Shown: positions 1,941 to 54,822, counted from the stretch's first letter. The stretch is 64,000 bases of DNA from an uncultured Acidobacteriota bacterium (GCA_963805975.1 CAWDVR010000002.1:704001-768000), one strand, 5' to 3'. Numbers and translations: made by a program. Notes: generated by a model not told the origin, from the sequence alone.

Positions 1941-3356
<1,416 letters not shown>

Positions 3357-3423
3357 CTGCTCAAGACCTTTCTGTGGCAGGGGTGGACGGCTCGTCGCGG
3401 GTGGACGCGCGCGCCGGGTTCTC

Positions 3424-3912
3424 CTAGTTCACGGTCTGGTTGCCGGCCATCATGCGGCCGGTGGCGATCGCCCGGGCCTCGGCCAGCACTGCGGGGTCCA
3501 CGGCCTCGACCAGGAGCTCCAGCGCCGCCGTGTTCTGCACCAGGCCGGCCAGGAGGCGCCCGGCCGCGGCCCGTTCGGCCGCCGGAGCGCTCCACGAAGC
3601 CGTGGGGTCGCGGACCTCGTCGCTCAGCAGGGCGCCGGCTTCCGGCTCCTCTTCGAGCTTGGTGCCACCGAAAGCGGTAAACACGGCCGCCGCCAGAAAA
3701 GCGGTGCGGCGGTCGCCGAGGACGGCCGCCGGGGCCGCGCCTGGCGGAGCTCCCACCTCGACCACGGCGAAGCGGCCCGTGCCCATCTCGGTCACGCGGA
3801 AACGGGGGCCTTCGCCCTCGCCCACCGCCTCGATGGGCTCCTCCGCCCGTCGCCGCGCGGCGAGATAGCGGAGCAGAAAATGTGTCGGGTCGCGGTCGTC
3901 GTGGCGGCTCAT
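3424..3912 (-). CDS. Hypothetical protein (162 aa)
   Basis: ATG-started ORF with plausible codon usage filling the gap between fumC and a TA pair; no recognised motif. Confidence 0.6.
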
Positions 3913-3966
3913 CGGAGAGATCCAAGTATCGCATAGCGCCCTCGCGCCGGACGACTCGCTTCAATG

Positions 3967-3975
3967 TGCTACCCT
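3967..3975 (+). promoter_or_regulatory. Extended -10 promoter (leaderless) of TA operon 2
   Basis: TGcTACCCT, 7 nt before ATG 3983. Confidence 0.5.
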
Positions 3976-3982
3976 GTGCTCC

Positions 3983-4267
3983 ATGGCGGATCTCCCTGCT
4001 GTCAACGTCCGCGAGCTACGGCAGAACCTCAGCAAGTATCTGCGGCGCGTCGCGGCCGGCGAGACGTTGCGCGTAGCCGAGCGTGGTCGGCCGGTGGCCA
4101 TCCTGGCGCCGCTGCCCGAGGGCGAGAGTCTGATCGATCGCCTGCTAGCGCAAGGGCTGCTGACGCGTCCACGACTCGATCTCGCCGCGCTCGGCCCTCC
4201 TCCTCCGCTGCCGACCGCCATACCCATCAGCGAGGCGCTAGCCGAGCAGCGAAGCGACAGGGTGTGA
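3983..4267 (+). CDS. Phd/YefM-family (VapB-type) antitoxin
   Basis: VNVRELRQNLSKYLRRVAAGETLRVAERGRPVAILAP; GTGA overlap with the PIN gene. Confidence 0.9.
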   Translation: MADLPAVNVRELRQNLSKYLRRVAAGETLRVAERGRPVAILAPLPEGESLIDRLLAQGLLTRPRLDLAALGPPPPLPTAIPISEALAEQRSDRV

Positions 4268-4676: not shown

Positions 4677-5426
4677 CTACCCCTCCAGCCTCGCCCGCAC
4701 CTCCGCTGCCCTCCTTCGCGACACGCGCACGGTCGAGCCGTCGGCCAGGGTGAGGGTGGCCGAGCCATCGCCGCAGCCGGTGATCTTCTCGATCGCCTCG
4801 AGGTTGACGAGGTCGGCGCGGCTGGCGCGCACGAAGCAGGCCCCGGCGCGGGCCTCGATCTCCTGCAAGGTGTAGTCGGTGAGATTGCGACCGGCCTTGG
4901 TGTGGGCGACGACCAAGCCGTCGCCGGCCTCGAAGCGCAGAATGGCGCGGAACGGCAGCAGCCGGTGCCCGCGACTCTCGCGCACCAGGAGGCGGGGCCG
5001 CGCCGCCCCCGAGAGCTGGAGCGCGTCACCGAGGCGGCCGAGGAGGTCCGGCGGCAGCGCCGGCGCCTGCCGCTCCTCGAGCCGCCGCCGCGCCCGCTCG
5101 AGGGCGCGCTCGAGCCGGTCGCGGGTCACCGGCTTGACCACGTAGTCGATCGCCTCGTGCTCGAAGGCCTGCAGGGCGTACTCGTCGTAGGCGGTCTGGA
5201 AGACGATCAGCGGCCGCGGCTCCGGCAGGTGGCGGGCGACGTCGAAGCCGTCGACCTCGGGCATGGCGATGTCGAGCAGCAGCAGATCCGGCCGGAATTC
5301 GCGCAGCCGCTCCAGGGCCTCGACGCCATCGGCCGCCTCGCCCACCACCTCGACGTCGAGGTCGGCGAGCATGGCGGCGAGACGCCCGCGGGCCGCCGGC
5401 TCGTCGTCGACGATCAGCACCCGCAC
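4677..5426 (-). CDS. LytTR-family response regulator
   Basis: GTG start just after the kinase stop. REC motifs [35 protein letters not shown]; LytTR motifs [19 protein letters not shown]. Confidence 0.92.
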
Positions 5427-5428
5427 GT

Positions 5429-6598
5429 TCAGCTCCGCTCCGACGTGCGCGGCCCGGTGACGGGGAGGGTCACCACCGCCTTCGCGCCGCGCTCGCCGGG
5501 CTCCAGCGCGAGGCTCGCCGCCGGTCCATACAGGGTGGCGAGCCGCTGGCGCAGGTTCGAGAGGCCGGTGCCTTCCCCGTGCCGCAGAGGCAGGCCGGCG
5601 CCGTCGTCCGCCACCGAGAGCACGAGCTTGCCGGCGACGAAACCGGCCACGATCTCGATCGTGCCGCCCTCGATGCGCTGGCCGAGCCCGTGCTTCAGGG
5701 CGTTCTCGACCAGGGGCTGGAGGACCAGCGGCGGCACGGGCACCGCCAGGGCGTCCGGGGCGATGGCCCAGCTCACCCGCAGCCGGTCGCCAAAGCGCTG
5801 CTCCTCGACCGCCAGGTAGGCCTTCAGGTAGTCGATCTCTTCCCCCAGCGGCGCCGCCGTGCGCCGCGAGCGGTCGAGGGTCTTCCGCAGCACCTGCGCC
5901 ACGTTCTCGACCGTGGCCTCGGCGGCGCGGGCGTCGGTGCGCACCAGGGCGGCGATGGTGTTCAGGGCGTTGAACAGGTAGTGGGGATGGATCTGCGCCT
6001 GGAGAGCTGCGAGCTGCGCCTCGGTGGCCTCGGAGCGGGCGCGGGCGGCGGCCTCGGCCTGCTCGCGGGCGTGCTGATAGAGGAACCTCGAGGCGCGGTG
6101 GCTGGCGCGGGCGACGAGCACGCCGACGAAGAGGAAGCCGACCACCATGAGCAGGTATTCGGGGCCGTGGAAGAGCGCGCGCACGATGTTCACCCCGGTC
6201 CCGGCGCCGAGCAGCAGCCCGGCGGCCACCCCCAGCACCGGCGAAACCTCGAGCATCTGGTGCAGGACGCGGGGCTCGACCTCCGGCAAGGAAACCGGAC
6301 CGGCCTCCAAGGCCTTGCCGGTCTGGCTGGCCGTCTCGAGCACGTGCGAGATCATCCACAAGTAGAGCCCCGACAGACCGAGACAGAACGCCATCGACTC
6401 GGCCACGCCCCACTTGCCGCGGCTGTTGTCGAGATCTAAAACCAGTTGCAGGGTGACGATGAACACGGTGCCGAAGATCAGGCCCAGCACGGTCAGCCGG
6501 CTCTTTCTCGGCGCCTCGCGGTAGGTCGAGGTGAGGATGGCCCAGAGAGAACCGGCGGGGCGCGGCCTTGCAGCCAAGACGGAAGCGGGTGTGGTCAT
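5429..6598 (-). CDS. LytS/YehU-type sensor histidine kinase
   Basis: AAGGAGG RBS before ATG 6598; N-terminal TM helices; [45 protein letters not shown]. Confidence 0.92.
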
Positions 6599-6790
6599 GG
6601 TGAAGCCCTCCTTTCGAGGATCTACCATCCCGCCGTTCGCGGCAACCCTCAACGCCGAGACGGGTGAGCGGCCGGACGAGCGGGTCGAGCGGCAGTTTTC
6701 GGCCGCCGAGCCGGAGACCGCCGCGCATCGAGTCCGCGCCGGTCTTGGCGGCCCCCTCCTGCGGTCTGTGGGGAGAACGAGCGAAGCTGG

Positions 6791-10016
<3,226 letters not shown>

Positions 10017-10890: not shown

Positions 10891-12006
10891 CTACTGGAAC
10901 GCCGAGCCGCACTTCCCCGTGCCGGTGAGCGGCACCTTCTGGCCAGGGGCCAGGATCAGGGTGCCAGGCCGGTCGCCGCGCTCCTGCCAGCCGCTCCAAT
11001 CCACCAGGTAGGAGCAGGTGCAGGAGATGCCCTGATCGATCAGCGCATCCTTCTGCGCCTCGGTGAGCGAGAAGTCGGTGGTGGGGATGCCGAGGTCGTT
11101 CAGGATCACGGTGCGCTCGAGGTTGGGAGGATCGGTGGCCAGTGCGTCCACCTGCACCTTGAGCAGGGCCTCGAACAGCGCCTTGGTGTACTGGGGCAGA
11201 TCCTTGATCTTGCGCTCCCGTGCCGGTGAGCCGGTGTTGAGCAGCACGAAGCCCAGGGTCTCCCGGTCGAGACCCTGCTCGCCGTCGAAGGCGTCCACGG
11301 GATAGTTGCGCATCACGCCGCCGTCGACAAAAGTATCGCCGTCCGAGAGCACCGAGGCGAAGAAGACAGGGTAGGACATCGACATGCGCACGGCCATGGC
11401 GACCTCGAAGCCCGGGCTGGTGGCGAAGGAGAGCTCGCGGGCCTGGCTCGAGTTGAGGTCGGTCGAGAAGACGTGCAGGTCGCGGTAGCCGCCGGCCTGG
11501 AGGTCGGCGAAGGTGGCGTTCTTCTTGCCCGTCTTCGTCTCGATCAGGCAGCGCATCAGCTCGAGGAAGTAGTCACCGGCGTACCAGCCGTACTTCGACA
11601 GCAGCCGCGGCACGCCGTCGTCGCCGCCGTCCTCGAATTGCTTGAAATCGATCGACATCATCACCGACCGGATCTCCGACGGCGTGTAGCGCAGGCCCAC
11701 GAGCGCCGCCGTGATGGCGCCGGCCGAGGTCCCGGCCACGCGCTCGATCTGCGGCAGGATGCCCTGCTGCTCCATCACCTCGAGGGCGCCGGCGTAGGCC
11801 ACGCCTTTGACGCCGCCGCCCTCGAAGACCAGGTTGCGGAACGGGTACGCTCGGGGCGCCGGGCACAGGGAGGCTGCCTGTACAGGGAGTGGCGTGACCG
11901 AGGCGTCAGGCAGGAGGCTCTGACAGTCGAACGTGTGCGCCGTGGTGCAGCCTGCCGCAAGCGTGGTCACGACGACGAGCAGAGCGAGAGCCGGTTGGCG
12001 CCGCAT
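10891..12006 (-). CDS. Patatin-like phospholipase, predicted lipoprotein
   Basis: AAGGAG RBS; signal peptide with lipobox LAAG-C; NLVFEGGGVKG, GTSAG nucleophile motif, MSMSYPVFF, DGG. Confidence 0.9.
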   Translation of the reverse strand: MRRQPALALLVVVTTLAAGCTTAHTFDCQSLLPDASVTPLPVQAASLCPAPRAYPFRNLVFEGGGVKGVAYAGALEVMEQQGILPQIERVAGTSAGAITAALVGLRYTPSEIRSVMMSIDFKQFEDGGDDGVPRLLSKYGWYAGDYFLELMRCLIETKTGKKNATFADLQAGGYRDLHVFSTDLNSSQARELSFATSPGFEVAMAVRMSMSYPVFFASVLSDGDTFVDGGVMRNYPVDAFDGEQGLDRETLGFVLLNTGSPARERKIKDLPQYTKALFEALLKVQVDALATDPPNLERTVILNDLGIPTTDFSLTEAQKDALIDQGISCTCSYLVDWSGWQERGDRPGTLILAPGQKVPLTGTGKCGSAFQ

Positions 12007-40621: not shown

Positions 40622-40858
40622 ATGGGAGTTCAGATCACCATTCGCGATGTTCCGGGCGCGGTGCGAGATGAGCTGGCCGCCCGCGCCGCTCTTCAGGGCA
40701 AATCGATGCAGGAATACCTGCGTGCCGAGCTGGAGCGCCTGGCTTCTCGCCCGCCGGTCGAGCGGCTGCTCGCCGGGATCCGCGACCGCAAGAGGACGGC
40801 GGCGACCCGGCTCTCCCCGGAGGAGATCCTGGCCCATCGGGATGCGGAGCGCCGGTGA
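40622..40858 (+). CDS. FitA-like ribbon-helix-helix antitoxin
   Basis: QITIRDVPGAVRDELAARAALQGKSMQEYLR; GTGA overlap with the PIN gene; TTGCAT-17-CACCAT lies 6 nt upstream. Confidence 0.88.
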   Translation: MGVQITIRDVPGAVRDELAARAALQGKSMQEYLRAELERLASRPPVERLLAGIRDRKRTAATRLSPEEILAHRDAERR

Positions 40859-41256
40859 GCGCGGTCGTCGACGCCTCTCTGCTGGTCGCCGCCGTCGCGG
40901 ATGACGGCACGGAAGGAAACTGGGCCGAGGAAGTGCTGAGCGCCGGTGGCCTGGTGGCCCCCCACCTTGCCCTGGTGGAGGCCACCAACATCCTCCGCCG
41001 CTTCGAGCTCGCGGGTCGCCTGAGCCGCCTCGAAGCCGGGGCCGCTGCCCACGATCTCCTGCTGCTCGATCTGGAGCTGGTCCCCTTTGCCCCCTTCTCG
41101 CAGCGAGTCTGGGAGCTCCGGGCCAACGTCACGAGCTACGACGCCTGGTACGTCGCGGTGGCCGAAGAGCTCGATCTGCCCCTCGCAACCCTCGATCGGC
41201 CTCTTGCCGCCGCCCCTGGCCTTCACTGCCGATTCCTGCTGCCACCCTCTGCGTGA
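40855..41256 (+). CDS. vapC: VapC-family PIN toxin
   Basis: VVDASLLV, APHLALVE, SYDAWYVAVAE, LATLD. Confidence 0.9.
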   Translation: MSAVVDASLLVAAVADDGTEGNWAEEVLSAGGLVAPHLALVEATNILRRFELAGRLSRLEAGAAAHDLLLLDLELVPFAPFSQRVWELRANVTSYDAWYVAVAEELDLPLATLDRPLAAAPGLHCRFLLPPSA

Positions 41257-45683: not shown

Positions 45684-46394
45684 CTCGCCTCCCCGGCCAC
45701 CGCCGGCTGCTCGTGGCGGTCGTCGGCGATCACCCGGCCCTGCTCGAGGCGGGCGATCCGCCCGCAGTGGGCGGCGAGGCCCGGGTCGTGGGTGACCAGG
45801 ACGATCGTCTTGCCGGCCCGGTTGAGAGTCTGGAAGAGGGCCATGATCTCGCCGGCCGAGCCGCGCGTCCAGGTTGCCGGTCGGCTCGTCGGCCAGCAGG
45901 AGGTCCGGCTCGTTGACCAGGGCGCGGGCGATGGCCACCCGCTGCTGCTGCCCGCCGGAGAGCTCGGAAGGCCGATGGTCGATGCGGTCGGCGAGGCCCA
46001 CGGACTCCAGGGCCCGCCGCCCGAGGCCCTGGATCGAGGCGCGATCGGAGTAGAGGAGCGGCAGCTCCACGTTCTCGAGCGCGCTGGTCCTCGGCAGCAG
46101 GCGGAAGGTCTGGAAGACGAAGCCGATCTTGCGGTTGCGCAGGCGCGCCTGCTGGTCGACGCCGAGGCTCGCCACGTCCTCGCCGTCGAGCAGGTAGCGG
46201 CCCGCGCTGGGGCGGTCGAGCAGGCCGAGGACGTTGAGCAAGGTCGACTTGCCCGATCCGGACGAGCCGACGACGGCTACCATCTCGCCGCGCTCGATGG
46301 TGAGCGAGACCTCGCGGAGCGCCCGCACGGCTTCACCGCCGGGCCGCGTGTCGGGCCGAGTGTAGATTCTGTCGATCCCCTGCAGCTCGATCAT
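45680..46394 (-). CDS. ABC transporter ATP-binding protein (one +1 frameshift at about 45861)
   Basis: [35 protein letters not shown]. Removing one base gives [27 protein letters not shown]...GEAR*. Confidence 0.92.
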
Positions 46395-47567: not shown

Positions 47568-47625
47568 GGTAGGGCGCCTGAAGGGATGATCCGCGTCCGT
47601 CCAAATACGGCAAGGAGGTGAGACG

Positions 47626-50600
47626 ATGCCAAGCTCGAAGCTCGCCGGCCTGCTGGTTCGCGTGGAGGCGGGGGCCGGCCCCTCGCTGACCGACCATGCC
47701 CTGGGCGCGGCGGCGCCCGCCCTGGGAGCGCTGGGCTTCGCCGGGTTAGAGCCCCTCTTCACGGTGCCGGCGGGAGACGGCGCAGAGCCGGGTGTCGCGC
47801 CCGGCCCGCCGGCCGCCTGGTTCCGCGCCCCCCTCGCGGGGCCGGCCGGCGCTTCGCCCTGGGACCTCGTGCACGAGGCGGCGGCCAGCGGCCTGGGTTT
47901 CGCCGCCGGAAGCGGCGTCTACGTCGAGCCGGATCTGGAGCAGACTTTCCTCACCATCGCGCCGCGCGAAGGCCTCGCGGCCAGCAGCCACGAGGGCGCA
48001 GTCGACCCGCCCGACCCCTCCCTGCCCTCCCGTGCCGATCTCGCCTGGTTCCTGGGCGACGAGTTCTCGCAGCTCGCGGCGGCGAGGGCGGCGGCCGGCG
48101 ATCCCGGAGTCGGCCTGAGGGTCCGTATCGCGCACCTCGACACGGGCTTCGACGCCCGGCACTCGACCGTGCCGGCCCATCTGCGCACCGACCTGCAACG
48201 CAACTTCGTCGACGGCGAGCCGCCGGGGGACGCGCGGGATCCGGGCATCGACACCAACAACCCGCTCGACAATCCTGGGCACGGCACCGGCACGCTCGGC
48301 ATCCTGGCCGGCAACCGGGTGGCGGAGCTCGGCGATTTCCTCGGCGGCGCGGCGCTCGCGGAGGTGGTGCCGATGCGCATCGCCAAGAGCGTCGTGCTGC
48401 TGCGCACCAGCGCTCTCGCGAGAGCCCTCGACCACGTGAGCGGCGGCCTCGCCGGGCAACGCCTGGCCGACGTGGTGTCGCTCTCCATGGGCGGCGTCGC
48501 CTCCCGAGCCTGGGCCGACGCGGTGAACAAGGCGTACGAAGCGGGCGTCTGCCTGGTGGCGGCGGCGGGCAACAACTTCTCGGCCGGCCTCTTCGGCGTG
48601 CCGACCCGCTTCATCGTCTACCCGGCGCGCTTTCGGCGGGTGATCGCGGCCTGCGGCATCATGGCCAGCCGCGAGCCGTACTTCGGCCTGCCCTTCGGCA
48701 AGATGCAGGGCAACTGGGGACCGGCGAGCAAGATGGCGACAGCGATCGCCGCCTTCACCCCCAACGTGCCCTGGGCGGAGCTCGGCGCGCCGGCGATCGT
48801 CGACCGCAATGGCGCCGGCACCTCGGCCGCGACGCCGCAGGTGGCGGCGGCCGCGGCGCTGTGGCTAAGCCGGCACCGGGCCCAGGTGGCGCAGTACGCC
48901 CACCCCTGGCAGCGGGTCGAGGCGGTGCGCCATGCGCTGTTCACCGGCGCCGACAAGACCGCCGACGGCGGCAAGGCCGACAAGCTCGGCAACGGCATGC
49001 TGCAGGCCGCCCGCGCGCTCGCCATCGCGCCGCTGCAGGCGCCCGCGATGACGCCGCGCGACTCGGCGGCACTCGCCTTCCTGCGCGTCGTCACCGGCCT
49101 CGGGGTGGCGCCTTCGCCGCGCACCGAGATGCTCGCCCTCGAGGCCACGCAGCTCGCCCAGCTCGGGCTGGGCGCCGGAGAGCCGAACCCGTTCGAGAGC
49201 CTGGTGCCCGATCCGGACCTGCCGGCCTCGGCCATCCCTCCTACCCGGCGGCAGCGCTTCGTCGAGGCCCTGATCGAGCACCCCGCCGCCTCGCGAGCCC
49301 TCAAGGAGCACCTGCGGGAGACCTATCGCGGCGCCTACGGCCCACCGCCCACCCCGGGCAAGGCAGCCAAGCGGCAACCCCTGGCGCCCCAGACTCCTGA
49401 CCGAGGCCGACGGCCGGCAGAGGCCCCGTCGCGACGGCAGCCGGCAGGGGGCTACGCCTCCGAGCCCGTTGCCCGCCGCCTGCGCGGCTATGCCATCGAC
49501 CCCAGCCTGGAACAGCGCCTGGAGACTGCACCGATCAGCCGGGTCACCTTCACCGTTCCGTGGGAGAAGCTCGCACCCGGGCCGGTCGGCGAGTACCTGG
49601 AGGTGGTCGACTACGACCCGGCCAGCGGCTGCTTCTACGAGCCGGTCGACCTCGACTTGCCCAACCTGCTGGCGCAGGACGGCCTGCCGCCGTCCGAAGG
49701 CACGCCGCAGTTCCACCAGCAGATGGTCTACGCCGTGGCCATGCTGACCATCCGCAACTTCGAGCGGGCGCTCGGCCGCAAAGCCCTGTGGGCGCCGGGG
49801 CCGCCGCCGGAAGGCGCGCGCCCGAAGAACGACTCACGCTACGTGCAGCGCCTGCGCATCTACCCGCACGCCCTGCGCGAGGCCAACGCCTACTACAGCC
49901 CGACCAAGAAGGCGCTGATCTGTTCGGCTACTTCCCGGCCTCGGGCGACGACCCCGGCGGGCACCTGCCCGGCGGCATGGTCTTCACCTGCCTGTCGCAC
50001 GACATCATCGCCCACGAGACGACGCACGCCCTGCTCGACGGCATGCACCGCCGCTTCATCGAGCCCACCAACCCGGACGTGCTGCGCCTTCCACGAGGCG
50101 TTCGCCGACATCGTGGCGCTGTTCCAGCACTTCACCTTCCCCGAGATCCTGCGCCACCAGATCGCCCGCACCCGCGGCGACCTCGCGTTCGCAACAGAAC
50201 CTGCTCGGCCGAGCTGGCCGAGCAGTTCGGCCAGCTCGACCGGCATGCGCGACGCCCTGCGCAACGCCATCGGCCGCTTCGAGAACGGCGAGTGGAAGCC
50301 CGCCCAGCCCGACCCCAAGCAGTACGAGGTGACGACCGAGGCGCACGAGCGCGGCGCCATCCTGGTGGCGGCGGTCTTCGACGCGTTCCTCGTCGATCTA
50401 CGAGTCGCGGGTCGCCGGACCTGCTGCGCATCGCCACCGAGCGGCACCGGGCGTGCTGCCGCCGGGCGCCATCCACGCCCGACCTCGTCAACCGCCTCGC
50501 CGAAGCGGCCGCCAAGTCGGCGCAGCACGTGCTCACCATGTGCATCCGCGCCCTCGACTACTGCCCGCCGGTGGACCTGACCTTCGGCGAGTACCTGCGC

Positions 50601-51306
50601 GCCATCATCACCGCCGACTACGACCTGGTGCGCGGACGACGACCTGAACTACCGGATCGCCTTCATCGAGGCCTTCCGCCGGCGCGGCATCTACCCGCGC
50701 GACGTGCGCACGCTCTCGGTCGAGAGCCTGCGCTGGTGCGGTCCCCACAACGACGAGCACCGGCCCTCGGAAGCTCTGCTGCGCGGCCTCGAGAAGCTGC
50801 GCGACCATGCTCTGTTGCACGTCCACGCGCGGTCGCGGGAAGAGGTCTTCTACCTCGCCAGGGCGATGCGGCTCGACATGCACGACTGGCTCGAGGATCA
50901 CTTCGCCGCGAGCGGCACGAGCGGGCAGGACGCCGAGTTCCTGGGGCTCGACCCGAAAGTCGGGAGCTTCGAGATCCACTCGCTGCGGGTGGCCAACCGG
51001 GTGAGCCCCGACGGCGATCTCCTGCGCCAGGTGATCATCGAGATCCTGCAGGACAAGGAGGTGGCGGTGCACCCCGAAGACCCGAACGGCGAGAAGACCG
51101 TGGTCGAGGGCGGCTGCACAGTGGTAGCCGACCTCCAGCGGCTGCGAATCAACTACTGCATCCGCAAGAACCTGGCGAGCAAGGGCCGGCTGGCGCGGCA
51201 GCAACAGTACGTGGCGCGCTTCGGCTCCGGTTCACTGCACGCCACGTACTTCGGCAACGACGCGGCGCTCCGCGAGCCGGTCGCCAGTCTGCATCGCAGC
51301 GCCTAG
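47626..51306 (+). CDS. Cytoplasmic S8 subtilase fused to a thermolysin-like (HEXXH gluzincin) domain; multiple indels at about 49915-50640
   Basis: AAGGAGGT RBS; no signal peptide. S8 triad IAHLDTG / GHGTGTLG / GTSAATP and AAAGN. Then NAYYSP, LSHDIIAHETTH (HEXXH at 50013-50027), AFHEAFAD, HERG and RALDYCPPVD, read across shifting frames to the stop at 51306. Confidence 0.8.
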
Positions 51307-51331
51307 CAGCCCGTGCGAAGGAGGTGTGGAG

Positions 51332-52858
51332 ATGAAAGTGCGCGTCCGGATGTACCGCCAGGGGCTGGGTGACTGCTTCCTCCTCACCTTCGACGAAGGG
51401 CCGGCGGCGAAACACGTGCTGATCGATTGCGGCACGCTGGGGGCGACGACGACGGGAGTGGCGATGGCGGACGTGGTGCAGCACATCCACGATCAAACCG
51501 GGGGGCACCTTACCCTCCTCGTCGCCACCCACGAGCACAAGGACCACGTCTCGGGCTTCCTCACCCGGCAGGCGACCTTCGATCAGATCCAGGTCGATCA
51601 CGTCTGGCTGGCCTGGACCGAGGACGCCGAGGACGACCTGGCAAAGGAGCTCCAGAAGCACAAGGGCGACCTGCTCAGCGCCTTGAAGCTCGCCGCGGCG
51701 ACGCTGGAGAAGAACGACGCGCCCTTCGCCGCCGACCGCAAAGCGACGGCCGAGGTGGGCAGCGGCATCCGCAAGCTGCTGGCGTTCTACGACGAGGAGG
51801 CGCTCGGGGCCAAGCTCGCCACCACCATCAACGAGGCGATGGACTGGGTGACGCGCAAGATGTTCGCGGCCGGGGACGACTTCCTGCTCCCCGGCGGCGA
51901 GGCGATCGAGCCGGAGTGGCTGCCGGGGTGGCGCTTCTACGTGCTGGGGCCGCCGCACGACAAGAAGGCCCTCGCCAACATGGGCGAGCATGGCTCACCG
52001 GAGCTCTACGAGCTGGGGGCCCGGCAGGCCGCCAGCCTGATGGCGAGCGTCGCCTTCTTCGCCGCCGGTGAATCGCTCGAGCAGTACTACGCCGGGCTCG
52101 AACCGGACGATCGGCAGGAGCTCGCGCGCGGCCTGCCCTTCGACCTCCGGCACCGGCTGGAGGCCCACGACCGAGAGGTGCAGGAGCAGTACCGCGACAC
52201 CTACTATCGCGACGAGGACGCCTGGCGCCGGATCGACTACGACTGGCTGGGAAGCGCCGCCGACCTGGCGCTGCAGCTCGACAGCCAGACCAACAACACC
52301 AGCCTGGCGCTCGCCATCGAGAGGATCGCGGACGGCCGCGTGCTGCTCTTCCCCGCCGACGCGCAGGTCGGCAACTGGCTCTCCTGGCACGCCGACGCCA
52401 TGAAGTGGAAGGTGAAGGACGCCGCCGGGGTGGTGCGGCAAGTGACCGCCAAGGAGCTGCTCGCCCGCACGGTGCTCTACAAGGTCGGCCACCACGCCAG
52501 CCACAACGCCACGATCCGAGAGCAGGGCCTCGAGCTGATGGCCAGCCCCGAGCTCACGGCGATGATCCCGGTGGACCGGGCGGTGGCGATCAAGAAGACG
52601 CCGCCGTGGCAGATGCCGGCACGCGGCCTCTACAAGCGTCTGCTCGAGAAGACCCAAGGCCGGGTGCTGCGCTCGGATGTGGGATGGGCGCGCCCGGACG
52701 CCGACTTCAAGAAGCTCTTCACCGCGCAGGAGTGGAGCGCGTTCGAGGCCCAGCAACAGGCGACGATGGACGCCAAACGGGTCGAGATCGACAAGCTCGA
52801 CCCAGCCACGGGGGTCGAGCAGCCCGGGAGCCTGTTCATCGACTTCGTGCTGGACTAG
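51332..52858 (+). CDS. Metallo-beta-lactamase-fold hydrolase, ComEC/Rec2-like, with large insertions
   Basis: AAGGAGGT RBS; GLGDCFLL, VLIDCG, THEHKDHVSG (HxHxDH), NNTSL, LFPADAQ, YKVGHHASHN; no signal peptide or TM. Confidence 0.88.
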   Translation: MKVRVRMYRQGLGDCFLLTFDEGPAAKHVLIDCGTLGATTTGVAMADVVQHIHDQTGGHLTLLVATHEHKDHVSGFLTRQATFDQIQVDHVWLAWTEDAEDDLAKELQKHKGDLLSALKLAAATLEKNDAPFAADRKATAEVGSGIRKLLAFYDEEALGAKLATTINEAMDWVTRKMFAAGDDFLLPGGEAIEPEWLPGWRFYVLGPPHDKKALANMGEHGSPELYELGARQAASLMASVAFFAAGESLEQYYAGLEPDDRQELARGLPFDLRHRLEAHDREVQEQYRDTYYRDEDAWRRIDYDWLGSAADLALQLDSQTNNTSLALAIERIADGRVLLFPADAQVGNWLSWHADAMKWKVKDAAGVVRQVTAKELLARTVLYKVGHHASHNATIREQGLELMASPELTAMIPVDRAVAIKKTPPWQMPARGLYKRLLEKTQGRVLRSDVGWARPDADFKKLFTAQEWSAFEAQQQATMDAKRVEIDKLDPATGVEQPGSLFIDFVLD

Positions 52859-52971: not shown

Positions 52972-54822
52972 ATGTCGATCCGACGCAGCACCGCGATCCT
53001 GGCGCTGGCCCTGATGCTCGTGGCCGGCACCCCCATGCAGTTGCTGGCCCAGGAGGCCGCGGCCAAGGCTCCCACCGCACCACAGGACCGGCGCGGGTTC
53101 GGCGGTCCGCTACCCGCCTCCGCAGTGCCGGGCTCCACGGCCGAGCGGCAGGCCGCCTGGAACAGCCTGACCCCGAAGGAGCAGGAGCAGAAGATCGAGG
53201 AGTTCCTCGAGCGGGTCGGGCCCGCGGTCCAGCGGGAGGCGGCCGAGAGAGCGCGGCGGCCGCGGCCCGTGCCGGCCCAGATCGTCGCCGGGCGCCCCGG
53301 CGAGGCGGTCTACACCCAGCCGACCGCCGTTCCCGCCGAGGGCGCGCGGCTCTCCTTCACGGGCGCGGCGCAAGCGCCCATCGAGCCCTGCTGGGAGCTG
53401 TCCTGCGGCTACAACGAGCCGCCCCAGGTCTTCGCCTCCGCCTCACCGCAGAGCGGGGCGGCGCCGCTCACCGTGAGCTTCTCCGCCTACGCCTACGACC
53501 CGGACGGCTACGTGACCAGCCTGTTCTGGAGCTTCGGCGACGGCGGCTATTCCTACGACTACCACCCCACCCACACCTACACCGCGGCGGGCACCTACTA
53601 TGCCGAGGTCTCGGTGACCGACGACCAGGGAGCCTCGGCATGGTCGTCGGTGGCGATCACGGTCGGCGGCGGGGGCGCCAACCAGCCGCCGCAGGTGAGC
53701 CTCGGCGGCTCACCGCTCGTCGGCTTCGGGCCGCTCAACGTCTCCTTCAACGCCTACGCCTCCGATCCGGACGGCTGGATCGCCTCCTACGCCTGGAGCT
53801 TCGGCGACGGCGGGTCGGCCGCCGGACCCGCGTCTCTCTCGCACACCTACACCACGGCGGGGATCTTCACGGCGAGCGTCACGGTGACGGACAACGCGGG
53901 CGCCACCGCCACGGCCTCCGCCACGGTCAAAGTGAGCGGCTCCACCTCGGATGCCGACCAGGACGGCCTCGACGACGGCCTCGAGGCGCAGCTCGCCTCG
54001 GGCTTCATGCCGATCTACCACGTGTCGGCCGGCGAGCAGCCCGGCACCGGCTTCGCACGCTTCCAGGACACGGCCTCGCTCGCCATTCTCCAGAACCTCC
54101 CGGCGGTGCCGCCGGCGGTCCACTGGCGGGTCTCGCCCCTCTTCGTGGCGAACCTCAACGGCGTGCCGCAGCAGTTCCTGCAGATCGACTACCTGACGAT
54201 CTGGAACCGGGACGACGGTCTCGAGATCGGCGGCGTCTGCCGCTTCGAGGCCGCGGTCCTGGGCGGGCTGGTGGGGTTTGGCCTGGTATCGGCCCTGGAT
54301 GGCCTCTTGTCGCACCCGCTCGACCCGGAACGGTCGGCCGTGCTCGTCTCGGCGCCGCTCGCCGGGGCCGGGGACCCCAACTCCTACCGCTCCCTCTCCT
54401 ACTACCTGGCCTCGCACGAAGGCACCTTCACCGACCACAGCATCTATTTGCCGCCTCCATACCCGCTGCCGCCCGGCAACCACGCCCTGATGTGGCACTC
54501 GAAGTCCAAGCACGCCACCTACGAGTTCAACCCCGACTACTTCCCACTGATCCCCAGTTGGGTGATCTACGCAACCTACTTCACGATCGAGGACCTGTAC
54601 TGGTTCGGCTGGATCGACTACTGGGACTACCTGATCTACCTGTCGATTGCCGACTCGGTGTTCTTCTCCTGCATCGTCGAGCACTTCTCCAACCAGGGAG
54701 GCTCGCTGCCCAGCTTCGAGCTCAACGTCGGAGAGAACGGCCGGCCGCTCAACGGTTCGAGCTGGATCGCGGACTCGCGCGTCGCCGAGAAGCTCCAGCC
54801 GCTCTGGATCCTGGTGAACTGA
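52972..54822 (+). CDS. Secreted protein with two PKD domains and an uncharacterised C-terminal domain
   Basis: AAGGAG RBS; signal peptide; two APLTVSF..D.DG....WSFGDG...HTYT.AG....VTD repeats; DADQDGLDD; C-terminal HPLDPE, YYLASHEG, SKHATY. Confidence 0.85.
   Translation: MSIRRSTAILALALMLVAGTPMQLLAQEAAAKAPTAPQDRRGFGGPLPASAVPGSTAERQAAWNSLTPKEQEQKIEEFLERVGPAVQREAAERARRPRPVPAQIVAGRPGEAVYTQPTAVPAEGARLSFTGAAQAPIEPCWELSCGYNEPPQVFASASPQSGAAPLTVSFSAYAYDPDGYVTSLFWSFGDGGYSYDYHPTHTYTAAGTYYAEVSVTDDQGASAWSSVAITVGGGGANQPPQVSLGGSPLVGFGPLNVSFNAYASDPDGWIASYAWSFGDGGSAAGPASLSHTYTTAGIFTASVTVTDNAGATATASATVKVSGSTSDADQDGLDDGLEAQLASGFMPIYHVSAGEQPGTGFARFQDTASLAILQNLPAVPPAVHWRVSPLFVANLNGVPQQFLQIDYLTIWNRDDGLEIGGVCRFEAAVLGGLVGFGLVSALDGLLSHPLDPERSAVLVSAPLAGAGDPNSYRSLSYYLASHEGTFTDHSIYLPPPYPLPPGNHALMWHSKSKHATYEFNPDYFPLIPSWVIYATYFTIEDLYWFGWIDYWDYLIYLSIADSVFFSCIVEHFSNQGGSLPSFELNVGENGRPLNGSSWIADSRVAEKLQPLWILVN

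Follow-up and report, generated by a model that had tools for sequence, protein, structure and literature searches.

The locus described here lies in a 64,000-nucleotide stretch of the genome of an uncultured Acidobacteriota bacterium (GCA_963805975.1 CAWDVR010000002.1:704001-768000), henceforth the window, from whose first letter coordinates are counted. It consists of a gene coding for a fusion of a subtilase (S8) with a zinc protease of the gluzincin type and, directly downstream on the same strand, a gene coding for a ComEC-type hydrolase of the metallo-β-lactamase (MBL) fold. The conserved core of this system is not the double protease; rather, it is the pairing of the MBL with a ~600-aa M4/M36-like gluzincin module, for which we use the name GLZ. 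On balance, we favor the view that the pair constitutes a gluzincin-activated MBL pro-nuclease module, in which the gene for a zinc protease of predicted cytoplasmic location precedes that for a putatively gated MBL, and that its role is probably anti-phage.

The association of the HETTH-bearing gluzincin domain with the MBL, which the first-pass annotation of this DNA had singled out for checking, is tight across phyla. We anchored one scan of species genomes on the MBL; of 113 confirmed loci, the best 80 were retained, and 77 of these have GLZ directly upstream of the MBL. One of the other three is at a contig edge, and two are C-terminal remnants of the MBL. When 401 genomes of the phylum were scanned with an MBL profile, 17 of them were found to encode it in 19 loci, every one of which has a GLZ match directly before the MBL. 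A GLZ-anchored scan of metagenomes (80 of 506 loci retained, 72 of them with room downstream) places the MBL next after 44 of 45 stand-alone GLZs, all four tandem GLZ-GLZ proteins, and 9 of 23 S8-GLZ fusions. The two partners are even fused in one protein (P0243, 918 aa), and their distance matrices correlate (r 0.77, 58 pairs), as is expected for any co-inherited neighbors. The same annotation had regarded the S8-gluzincin double protease as the defining unit; this had to be abandoned, as, of the genome loci whose 5' end could be read, a minority have S8 fused to GLZ (17/65, with 12 further loci cut by contig ends), and the MBL is frequently absent behind S8-GLZ fusions (14 of the 23 metagenome loci, and seven genomes of the 401-genome sample). 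Other rare MBL fusions were also seen (P0241, P0242, and P0244), namely MBL-S8 (1049 aa), MBL-NACHT-TPR (1356 aa), and a protein of 895 aa whose MBL is interrupted by a ~360-aa insert.

The MBL protein of the window (gene 2; 51332..52858, +; 508 aa), a predicted gated pro-nuclease, is encoded by one intact ORF that contains all the ComEC-type motifs earlier ascribed to it (GDC, IDCG, HEHKDH, NNTS, PADAQ, and KVGHH), with intact metal ligands (H67-x-H69-x-D71-H72, D343, and H387-H388). The ComEC nuclease domain is its top match by three methods, and the best fold match of its structural model (pLDDT 81) is to that domain in 9ic4 (Foldseek E 7e-7; Z 20.9, rmsd 3.3, 249 aligned). The GLZ-linked MBLs as a family retain HxHxDH and [GA]DA[QE] in 91/91 and KxGHH in 89/91 sequences. 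In them, HxHxDH and the C-terminal HH are separated by a median of 308 aa (range 245-380, n=90); the corresponding spacing is 115-123 aa for ten proteins of the ComEC type, 158-160 for another three short ones, and 193-287 for 13 Avs1a-like MBLs. The extra length resides in two insertions, both candidate gates: the one after the WTE strand (about aa 98-198; 51623..51925, +) has a low-confidence loop at 155-163 with F152 and L158-G-A, and the one between LGPP and NNTS (about aa 209-320; 51956..52291, +) has a low-confidence loop at 220-230 with E224-x-Y226 and L228-G-A. Of the loop-flanking residues, F152 is conserved in 91% of the sequences and E224-x-Y226 in 80-82% (Y226, 82%). A by-eye comparison with the PflHamM sequence in row 1 of Table S1 in PMC12799240 places the two insertions in the same inter-motif intervals as the cut sites I118 and I218 of that protein. 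The motif [LF][GA]A occurs in loop 1 of 30/91 sequences (shuffled mean 7.4) and in loop 2 of 34/91 (shuffled mean 16.3), as opposed to 7 (shuffled mean 2.8) and 2 (shuffled mean 1.8) in two control loops. This enrichment fits the preference of thermolysin for a hydrophobic P1' residue. By its fold, its two insertions, and its place in the MBL tree (see below), this protein is built like a pro-nuclease that is gated by proteolysis.

The gluzincin catalytic domain of gene 1 (49462..50720, +) contains NAYY (49885), HETTH (50013), the third-ligand motif FHEAFAD (50089), and HERG (50344), all four as previously read from the sequence. Among 61 full-length GLZ copies, HExxH and the third-ligand motif are invariant, and NAY[YF] and HxRG are found in 60 and 59, respectively. 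Pfam M4 is above its cutoff in just 1 of 20 GLZ relatives, and because it so rarely passes, the database records call these proteins hypothetical, "peptidase M4", or "serine protease", and the fused forms "S8 family serine peptidase". When the GLZ of locus L023 was modeled (pLDDT 88), residues 3-422 of the model aligned with two known folds, the M36 fungalysin at Z 17.4 (rmsd 4.3, 322 aligned) and LasB at Z 15.4 (rmsd 4.0, 278 aligned); thus, there is no propeptide in front, and G000 likewise gave no match to the FTP propeptide. In a crude hydrophobicity screen (not SignalP), in which the HlyD and PKD proteins of the window scored positive, a signal-like N-terminus was seen in 0/53 GLZ, 0/23 S8-GLZ, and 2/82 MBL proteins, both of the latter at the threshold. 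Both families are accordingly predicted to be cytoplasmic, in agreement with the absence of a signal peptide remarked on at the outset. Thus, GLZ resembles the M4 thermolysins and M36 fungalysins in its HExxH motif, glutamate third ligand, NAY[YF] motif, downstream histidine, and fold (Z 15-17), but differs from them in lacking a signal-like N-terminus and a preceding FTP/PepSY propeptide and in possessing a C-terminal domain of ~190 aa (50721..51306, + in gene 1). This domain had been described as a long helical extension; the helices are there, yet it is not helical alone, for the homologue model also shows a β-sheet domain (aa 507-572 of 616). It had no sequence match in PDB, no consistent match in Pfam, and Atlas scores that were below 0.9 or absent. 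Its interpretation as a permuted FTP/PepSY propeptide was unsupported in profile comparison (probability 0.1%) and was rejected. We consider it a candidate sensor, inhibitor, or docking domain.

The relationship of these MBLs to those of known conflict systems was assessed with a FastTree phylogeny of 120 MBL cores (230 columns). The 91 GLZ-linked MBLs, together with one that has no GLZ, form a clade (support 0.915), which is the sister group of the 13 Avs1a-like MBLs (0.942), with both set apart from ComEC (0.998). The deep branches of the GLZ-linked clade carry GLZ only. All 13 Avs1a-like MBLs have HxDxDH; nine stand directly behind a gene ending in an S8 domain without GLZ, and two lie beside CHAT genes. 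The S8 domains of this sister clade are weakly similar to the fused S8 of the window (best E 6e-7). The nine loci in question (L121, L124, L126-L131, and L133) probably represent the S8-adjacent clade of gated MBLs ("Clade 3", Fig. 1B) mentioned by Evans et al. (bioRxiv 10.1101/2025.11.14.688446), whose description, the sole basis of comparison, fits them better than it fits the GLZ-linked MBLs. No trypsin-linked MBL was identified among the 120 cores; therefore, what ties this family to HamM is the Avs1a profile, by which the 13 MBLs were found, and the placement of the insertions.

Neither gene was matched over its protein length by any PADLOC or NCBIfam model, the blank expected for PADLOC in the first-pass annotation. 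The Avs1a model covers only the N-terminal 110-150 aa of the MBL with 47 bits against a cutoff of 420, and LmuA-MBL likewise has no full-length match. That annotation had further held that no named system is known with such a composition; the model searches are in line with this, but the general idea of a protease freeing an MBL nuclease is already published, in 2025, for trypsin- and caspase-like proteases (PMC12799240; bioRxiv 10.1101/2025.11.14.688446). As described in those two sources and in bioRxiv 10.1101/2025.09.03.673762, the trypsin-gated systems (HamM/protease-HamA, Avs1a/Avs1b, and VcMBL/Avs2) share with the present one an MBL of the ComEC type in which two insertions separate the corresponding core motifs, an intact protease encoded alongside, and a patchy, plasmid-borne distribution. 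In contrast to them, the partner here is a gluzincin rather than a trypsin-like protease, the MBL lies downstream rather than upstream, there is no fused STAND, helicase, or reverse transcriptase sensor, the metal-binding motif is HxHxDH rather than HxDxDH, and the insertions are longer; no trypsin family was found among the 142 nearest neighbors of the genome loci, and the gene 3' of the MBL in the window codes for a secreted PKD protein. Canu (KaeCanABC), as presented in PMC12799240, is comparable in its protease-then-MBL order, stand-alone protease, and variable accessory genes; however, the protease here is a gluzincin, with no caspase upstream of the MBL and no recurring Ig-like/TPR partner of the CanB type. 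With Clade 3, as Evans et al. describe it, the common feature is an S8 upstream of a gated MBL, which is seen in the present locus and about a quarter of its relatives, but here a 600-aa gluzincin stands between the two and is the constant partner. Word searches of the available texts of PMC12799240, the Evans and Tuck preprints, and 10.1101/2025.09.03.673762 returned no mention of a metalloprotease or metallopeptidase, and a literature search found no description of an M4, thermolysin, or gluzincin pair with an MBL. There is nonetheless an appreciable chance, somewhat short of even, that the GLZ-linked clade is already annotated in the figures of PMC12799240 or the Evans preprint. The module most likely works like HamM, Avs1a, and CanC, yet stands outside the trypsin and caspase systems and apart from the S8-adjacent clade that we found.

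The region preceding GLZ is a variable slot that is occupied by S8, by a second GLZ, by an LCAT-like domain, or by an adjacent patatin gene. In the window, the slot is filled by S8, whose N-terminal region (47626..48120, +) has no signal peptide, ends in a phi-[GA]-x junction motif, and is probably a prodomain, judging from its position and the conserved PWD..H and EPD motifs. It is followed by the subtilase catalytic domain (48121..49000, +; D172/H219/N316/S400), which is matched by Pfam Peptidase_S8 (PF00082) over aa 166-457 (E 2e-21, above the cutoff) and has its complete triad and oxyanion Asn (HLDTG at 48133, HGTGT at 48280, AAGN at 48562, and GTSAA at 48817), in keeping with the full triad noted from the outset, and then by a conserved post-S8 segment and a variable Pro/basic linker (49001..49460, +). 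IetAS, which combines an AAA ATPase with an S8, is a precedent for cytoplasmic S8 in defense; the S8 described here is likewise predicted to be cytoplasmic, but it has no adjacent AAA partner, and the IetS model does not match gene 1. Most of the MBL-less S8-GLZ fusions belong to one clade (support 1.0), and therefore mainly one loss is implied. In the tree that shows this clade, eight loci were mislabeled as MBL-less, truncated or split MBL ORFs below 350 aa having been omitted, but none of them falls in that clade. As the slot is variable, the S8 of the present locus is likely an accessory regulator or a second latent effector and not a dedicated activator of the MBL.

Several arrangements around this slot are worth recording. 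The MBL-less S8-GLZ fusions (L100-L106 and 14 loci among L156-L235) keep both catalytic sites, with a patatin nearby in L100, L102, L168, and L205; the contig that holds L124 and L103 (G249:C58, about 27.9-40 kb) carries a protease-rich cluster with an S8 and gated MBL, a PHP-like gene, an MBL-less S8-GLZ, and an M6 peptidase. In tandem GLZ-GLZ proteins (~1200 aa; P0121-P0240; L034, L039, L187, L190, L223, and L227), usually preceded by a patatin, the first copy is often degenerate or has HQxxH and the second is intact; HExxH is changed or unreadable in 54/119 first copies versus 6/119 second copies. L093 (228-3611) has an LCAT-like α/β-hydrolase domain fused before GLZ, with the MBL next. Cultured non-pathogens also carry intact operons, S8-GLZ-MBL on plasmid pCMU01 of Methylorubrum extorquens CM4 (L094) and GLZ-MBL in Rhizobium gallicum IE4872 (L095) and Deinococcus sp. 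AB2017081 (L096). Patatin genes are adjacent in 11 of 80 genome loci and 13 of 80 metagenome loci, and Tle1-like hydrolase genes in 2 of 80 genome loci; such Tle1-like α/β-hydrolase (DUF2235) genes occur beside or near the pair in L094, L095, L098, L099, L253, L028, and L073. Besides the patatins and Tle1-like hydrolases, no third or sensor gene, such as a STAND or a helicase, recurs beside the pair. In L107 (6877-11464, -), a GLZ without an MBL is placed directly 3' of an amidase-caspase (C14) gene.

The phyletic pattern of the MBL is patchy: 8 of 41 relatives have it, as do the 17 genomes from the 401-genome sample. It was recovered on 32 plasmid records and GLZ on 76, from which 11 plasmid loci, picked beforehand for taxonomic spread, were examined. 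Eight of these have neighbors with names that we take to be defense-associated, namely SIR2, ThiF/multi-ubiquitin, JAB, WYL, AbiEii, DUF1837 with a helicase, and a restriction endonuclease. One such locus, on an Agrobacterium plasmid (L255:6881-15153), has patatin, GLZ, and MBL followed directly by DUF1837 and a DEAD/DEAH helicase, presumably a Hachiman system. Carriage of the module by phages themselves was considered and rejected: six GLZ matches in viral contigs were weak and partial and lacked an MBL, and the viral fold library gave no match at E<=0.001. These six (L150-L155) are GLZ-like HExxH proteins with 26-32% identity over ~180 aa and no MBL behind. The sole MBL among phage records is a full-length homologue (31%) at 2937-4094 of MT836994.1 (H73), an unannotated 9.5-kb gut contig.

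In the mechanism that we favor, the gluzincin would cut the loops in the MBL insertions, with candidate sites before F152/L158 and around Y226/L228; cutting would unmask a DNase activity, which would then kill or arrest the cell, probably a phage-infected one. As no STAND, helicase, or other type of sensor is found repeatedly beside the pair, the C-terminal domain of GLZ would be the best candidate for a sensing or inhibitory role. Of the proteolytic switch freeing a latent nuclease that the first-pass annotation proposed, the linkage, the cytoplasmic appearance, and the gated MBL anatomy have stood, whereas S8-gluzincin as its defining element has not. Several observations weigh against this mechanism. 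GLZ is also found without an MBL, and conversely the second MBL of L097 has no GLZ upstream and yet lies inside the GLZ-linked clade. The GLZ-linked MBLs keep HxHxDH, unlike HamM and the 13 Avs1a-like proteins with HxDxDH; their insertions are longer and mostly helical and could be a substrate-binding cap; and after ComEC the fold closest to that of the MBL is Pce, a phosphorylcholine esterase (Z 17.6). Only about a third of the sequences carry the candidate cut motif; the sequences, as kin, are not independent, and one control loop is mildly enriched too (p 0.013). As to context, two of the 11 plasmid loci are unclear and one is purely housekeeping, the chromosomal neighbors are mostly housekeeping, and any PADLOC model is matched by 18 of 142 nearest neighbors (about ten credibly), a count without a background control. 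With regard to the check for enrichment near defense genes that had been suggested, the window locus is outside any defense island, flanked by an ABC exporter/two-component cluster and the PKD gene, with the exporter flank retained in a genome of the same genus (G001). Finally, gene 1 is frameshifted in the present assembly.

An unlikely alternative is that the pair is a protease-gated death or dormancy module for general stress, development, or a non-phage conflict, or a toxin-antitoxin-like system in which the gluzincin destroys the MBL. The housekeeping genes around chromosomal copies, the lack of a recurrent phage sensor, and the frequency of the module in large soil genomes would all suit it, and carriage on plasmids fits addiction as well as defense; it is countered by the insertions at the gate positions, the kinship to Avs1a-like MBLs, and the defense-type neighbors on 8 of 11 plasmid loci, while the observation that the protease is common without the MBL and not the reverse fits activation and antitoxin logic alike. 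We regard it as improbable that the fused S8 is the activator, acting on the MBL directly or on the gluzincin in a two-step cascade, so that the locus would belong to the S8-adjacent clade of Evans et al. The S8 triad is intact in nearly all fusions (the Ser motif in 25/26 of those with an MBL), S8-adjacent gated MBLs do exist (bioRxiv 10.1101/2025.11.14.688446), the phi-[GA]-A motif could equally be an S8 P1 site, and the RefSeq label on the fusions could have led to their being counted in that clade. Yet, about three-quarters of the loci and the deep branches of the MBL tree have no S8, most S8-GLZ fusions in the metagenome loci have no MBL, and the separate clade with MBLs directly behind S8-ending genes (9/13 loci) has HxDxDH and an S8 that is only weakly alike. 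Slightly less probable still is that the MBL is a phosphoesterase or a lipid or cell-envelope hydrolase acting with the patatins and Tle1-like lipases, with the insertions forming a substrate cap and the gluzincin maturing or partnering it. The recurrence of those lipase genes, the match to Pce, and a HxHxDH unlike that of HamM are in its favor; against it are the primacy of the ComEC nuclease domain among the matches, the position of the clade as sister to the Avs1a-like one, and the fact that patatins and α/β-hydrolases, the latter also as a zymogen, are themselves known defense effectors.

We also entertain, as a tentative possibility, an extension of the gluzincin-activated pro-nuclease mechanism, in which the propeptide-less cytoplasmic gluzincin would be a stand-alone immune sensor-protease. 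Its C-terminal domain would restrain it until infection, whereupon it would open both the gated MBL DNase and the latent hydrolases of the slot (subtilase, patatin, and α/β-hydrolase) via a shared phi-[GA]-A motif, with the dead gluzincin of the tandem forms as a decoy or regulator. A search of the patatins for the phi-[GA]-A motif revealed no consistent site in them.

In the window, the two genes form an operon with a gap of 25 bp, as first read: the stop codon of gene 1 (47626..51306, +) ends at 51306, the MBL ATG is at 51332, and the ribosome-binding site AAGGAGGT precedes both genes (47612..47619 and 51318..51325, +). The gluzincin motifs are split over two reading frames, leaving gene 1 as a 984-aa ORF (47626-50580) plus pieces. 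An intact homologue of 1220 aa, the very length at which the restored protein had been estimated, is present in G001 (L119, 4659-8321), with the MBL next and the same ABC-exporter flank; the closest named relative is a Thermoanaerobaculia metagenome-assembled genome (MAG; L080, 63%). Relative to L119, there are seven non-triplet, frame-breaking indel clusters in ~0.75 kb (49909..50632, +) spanning the gluzincin active site. This concentration, together with the intact rpoB and rpoC, could signify that gene 1 is a genuine, recently decayed pseudogene and the module of this genome dead, whatever its mechanism elsewhere. We think this rather doubtful: the broken stretch has no surplus of substitutions, being about as close to G001 (85% identity) as the part immediately before it (87%), 13 bases are extra and 4 missing, the S8 and MBL parts are intact, and a further single-base frameshift relative to G001 occurs at 45863 in the neighboring ABC ATPase-permease region. 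Similar breaks are seen in several long-read MAG loci (L017, L049, L080, and L084), and, as weak evidence, one low-depth public contig is without the extra base at 50392. Of the public read sets listed, one DNA set contains this sequence at a small share, and no RNA set does. Local consensus error is thus the likelier explanation. Elsewhere in the window, the secreted protein 3' of the MBL (52972-54822, +) has two PKD domains and an unannotated C-terminal part and is not a recurring partner; a patatin gene (10891-12006, -) is found 36 kb from the module, and a FitA-like RHH antitoxin and PIN toxin pair at 40622-41256 (+). A 1779-aa ORF (4677-10016, -) joining the carbamoyl-phosphate synthase large chain to a response regulator-LytTR is either a real fusion or an assembly artifact.

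If the pro-nuclease interpretation is right, a fourth protease class, the zinc metalloproteases, would join the trypsin-like, caspase-like, and S8-linked proteases in the family of gated MBLs. The GLZ-MBL pair is common, with matches in many phyla, 17 carriers among the 401 sampled genomes of the phylum, and 32 plasmid records, yet it falls below the cutoffs of Pfam, NCBIfam, and PADLOC. Thermolysin-type zinc proteases are known mainly as secreted degradative enzymes, and GLZ, with neither a propeptide nor a recognizable sensor, raises the question of what keeps such an enzyme silent in the cytoplasm and what activates it. Should the sensor-protease extension prove true, a metalloprotease would for the first time stand at the head of a pro-nuclease pathway, and the S8 fusions would represent a two-protease cascade in one polypeptide.

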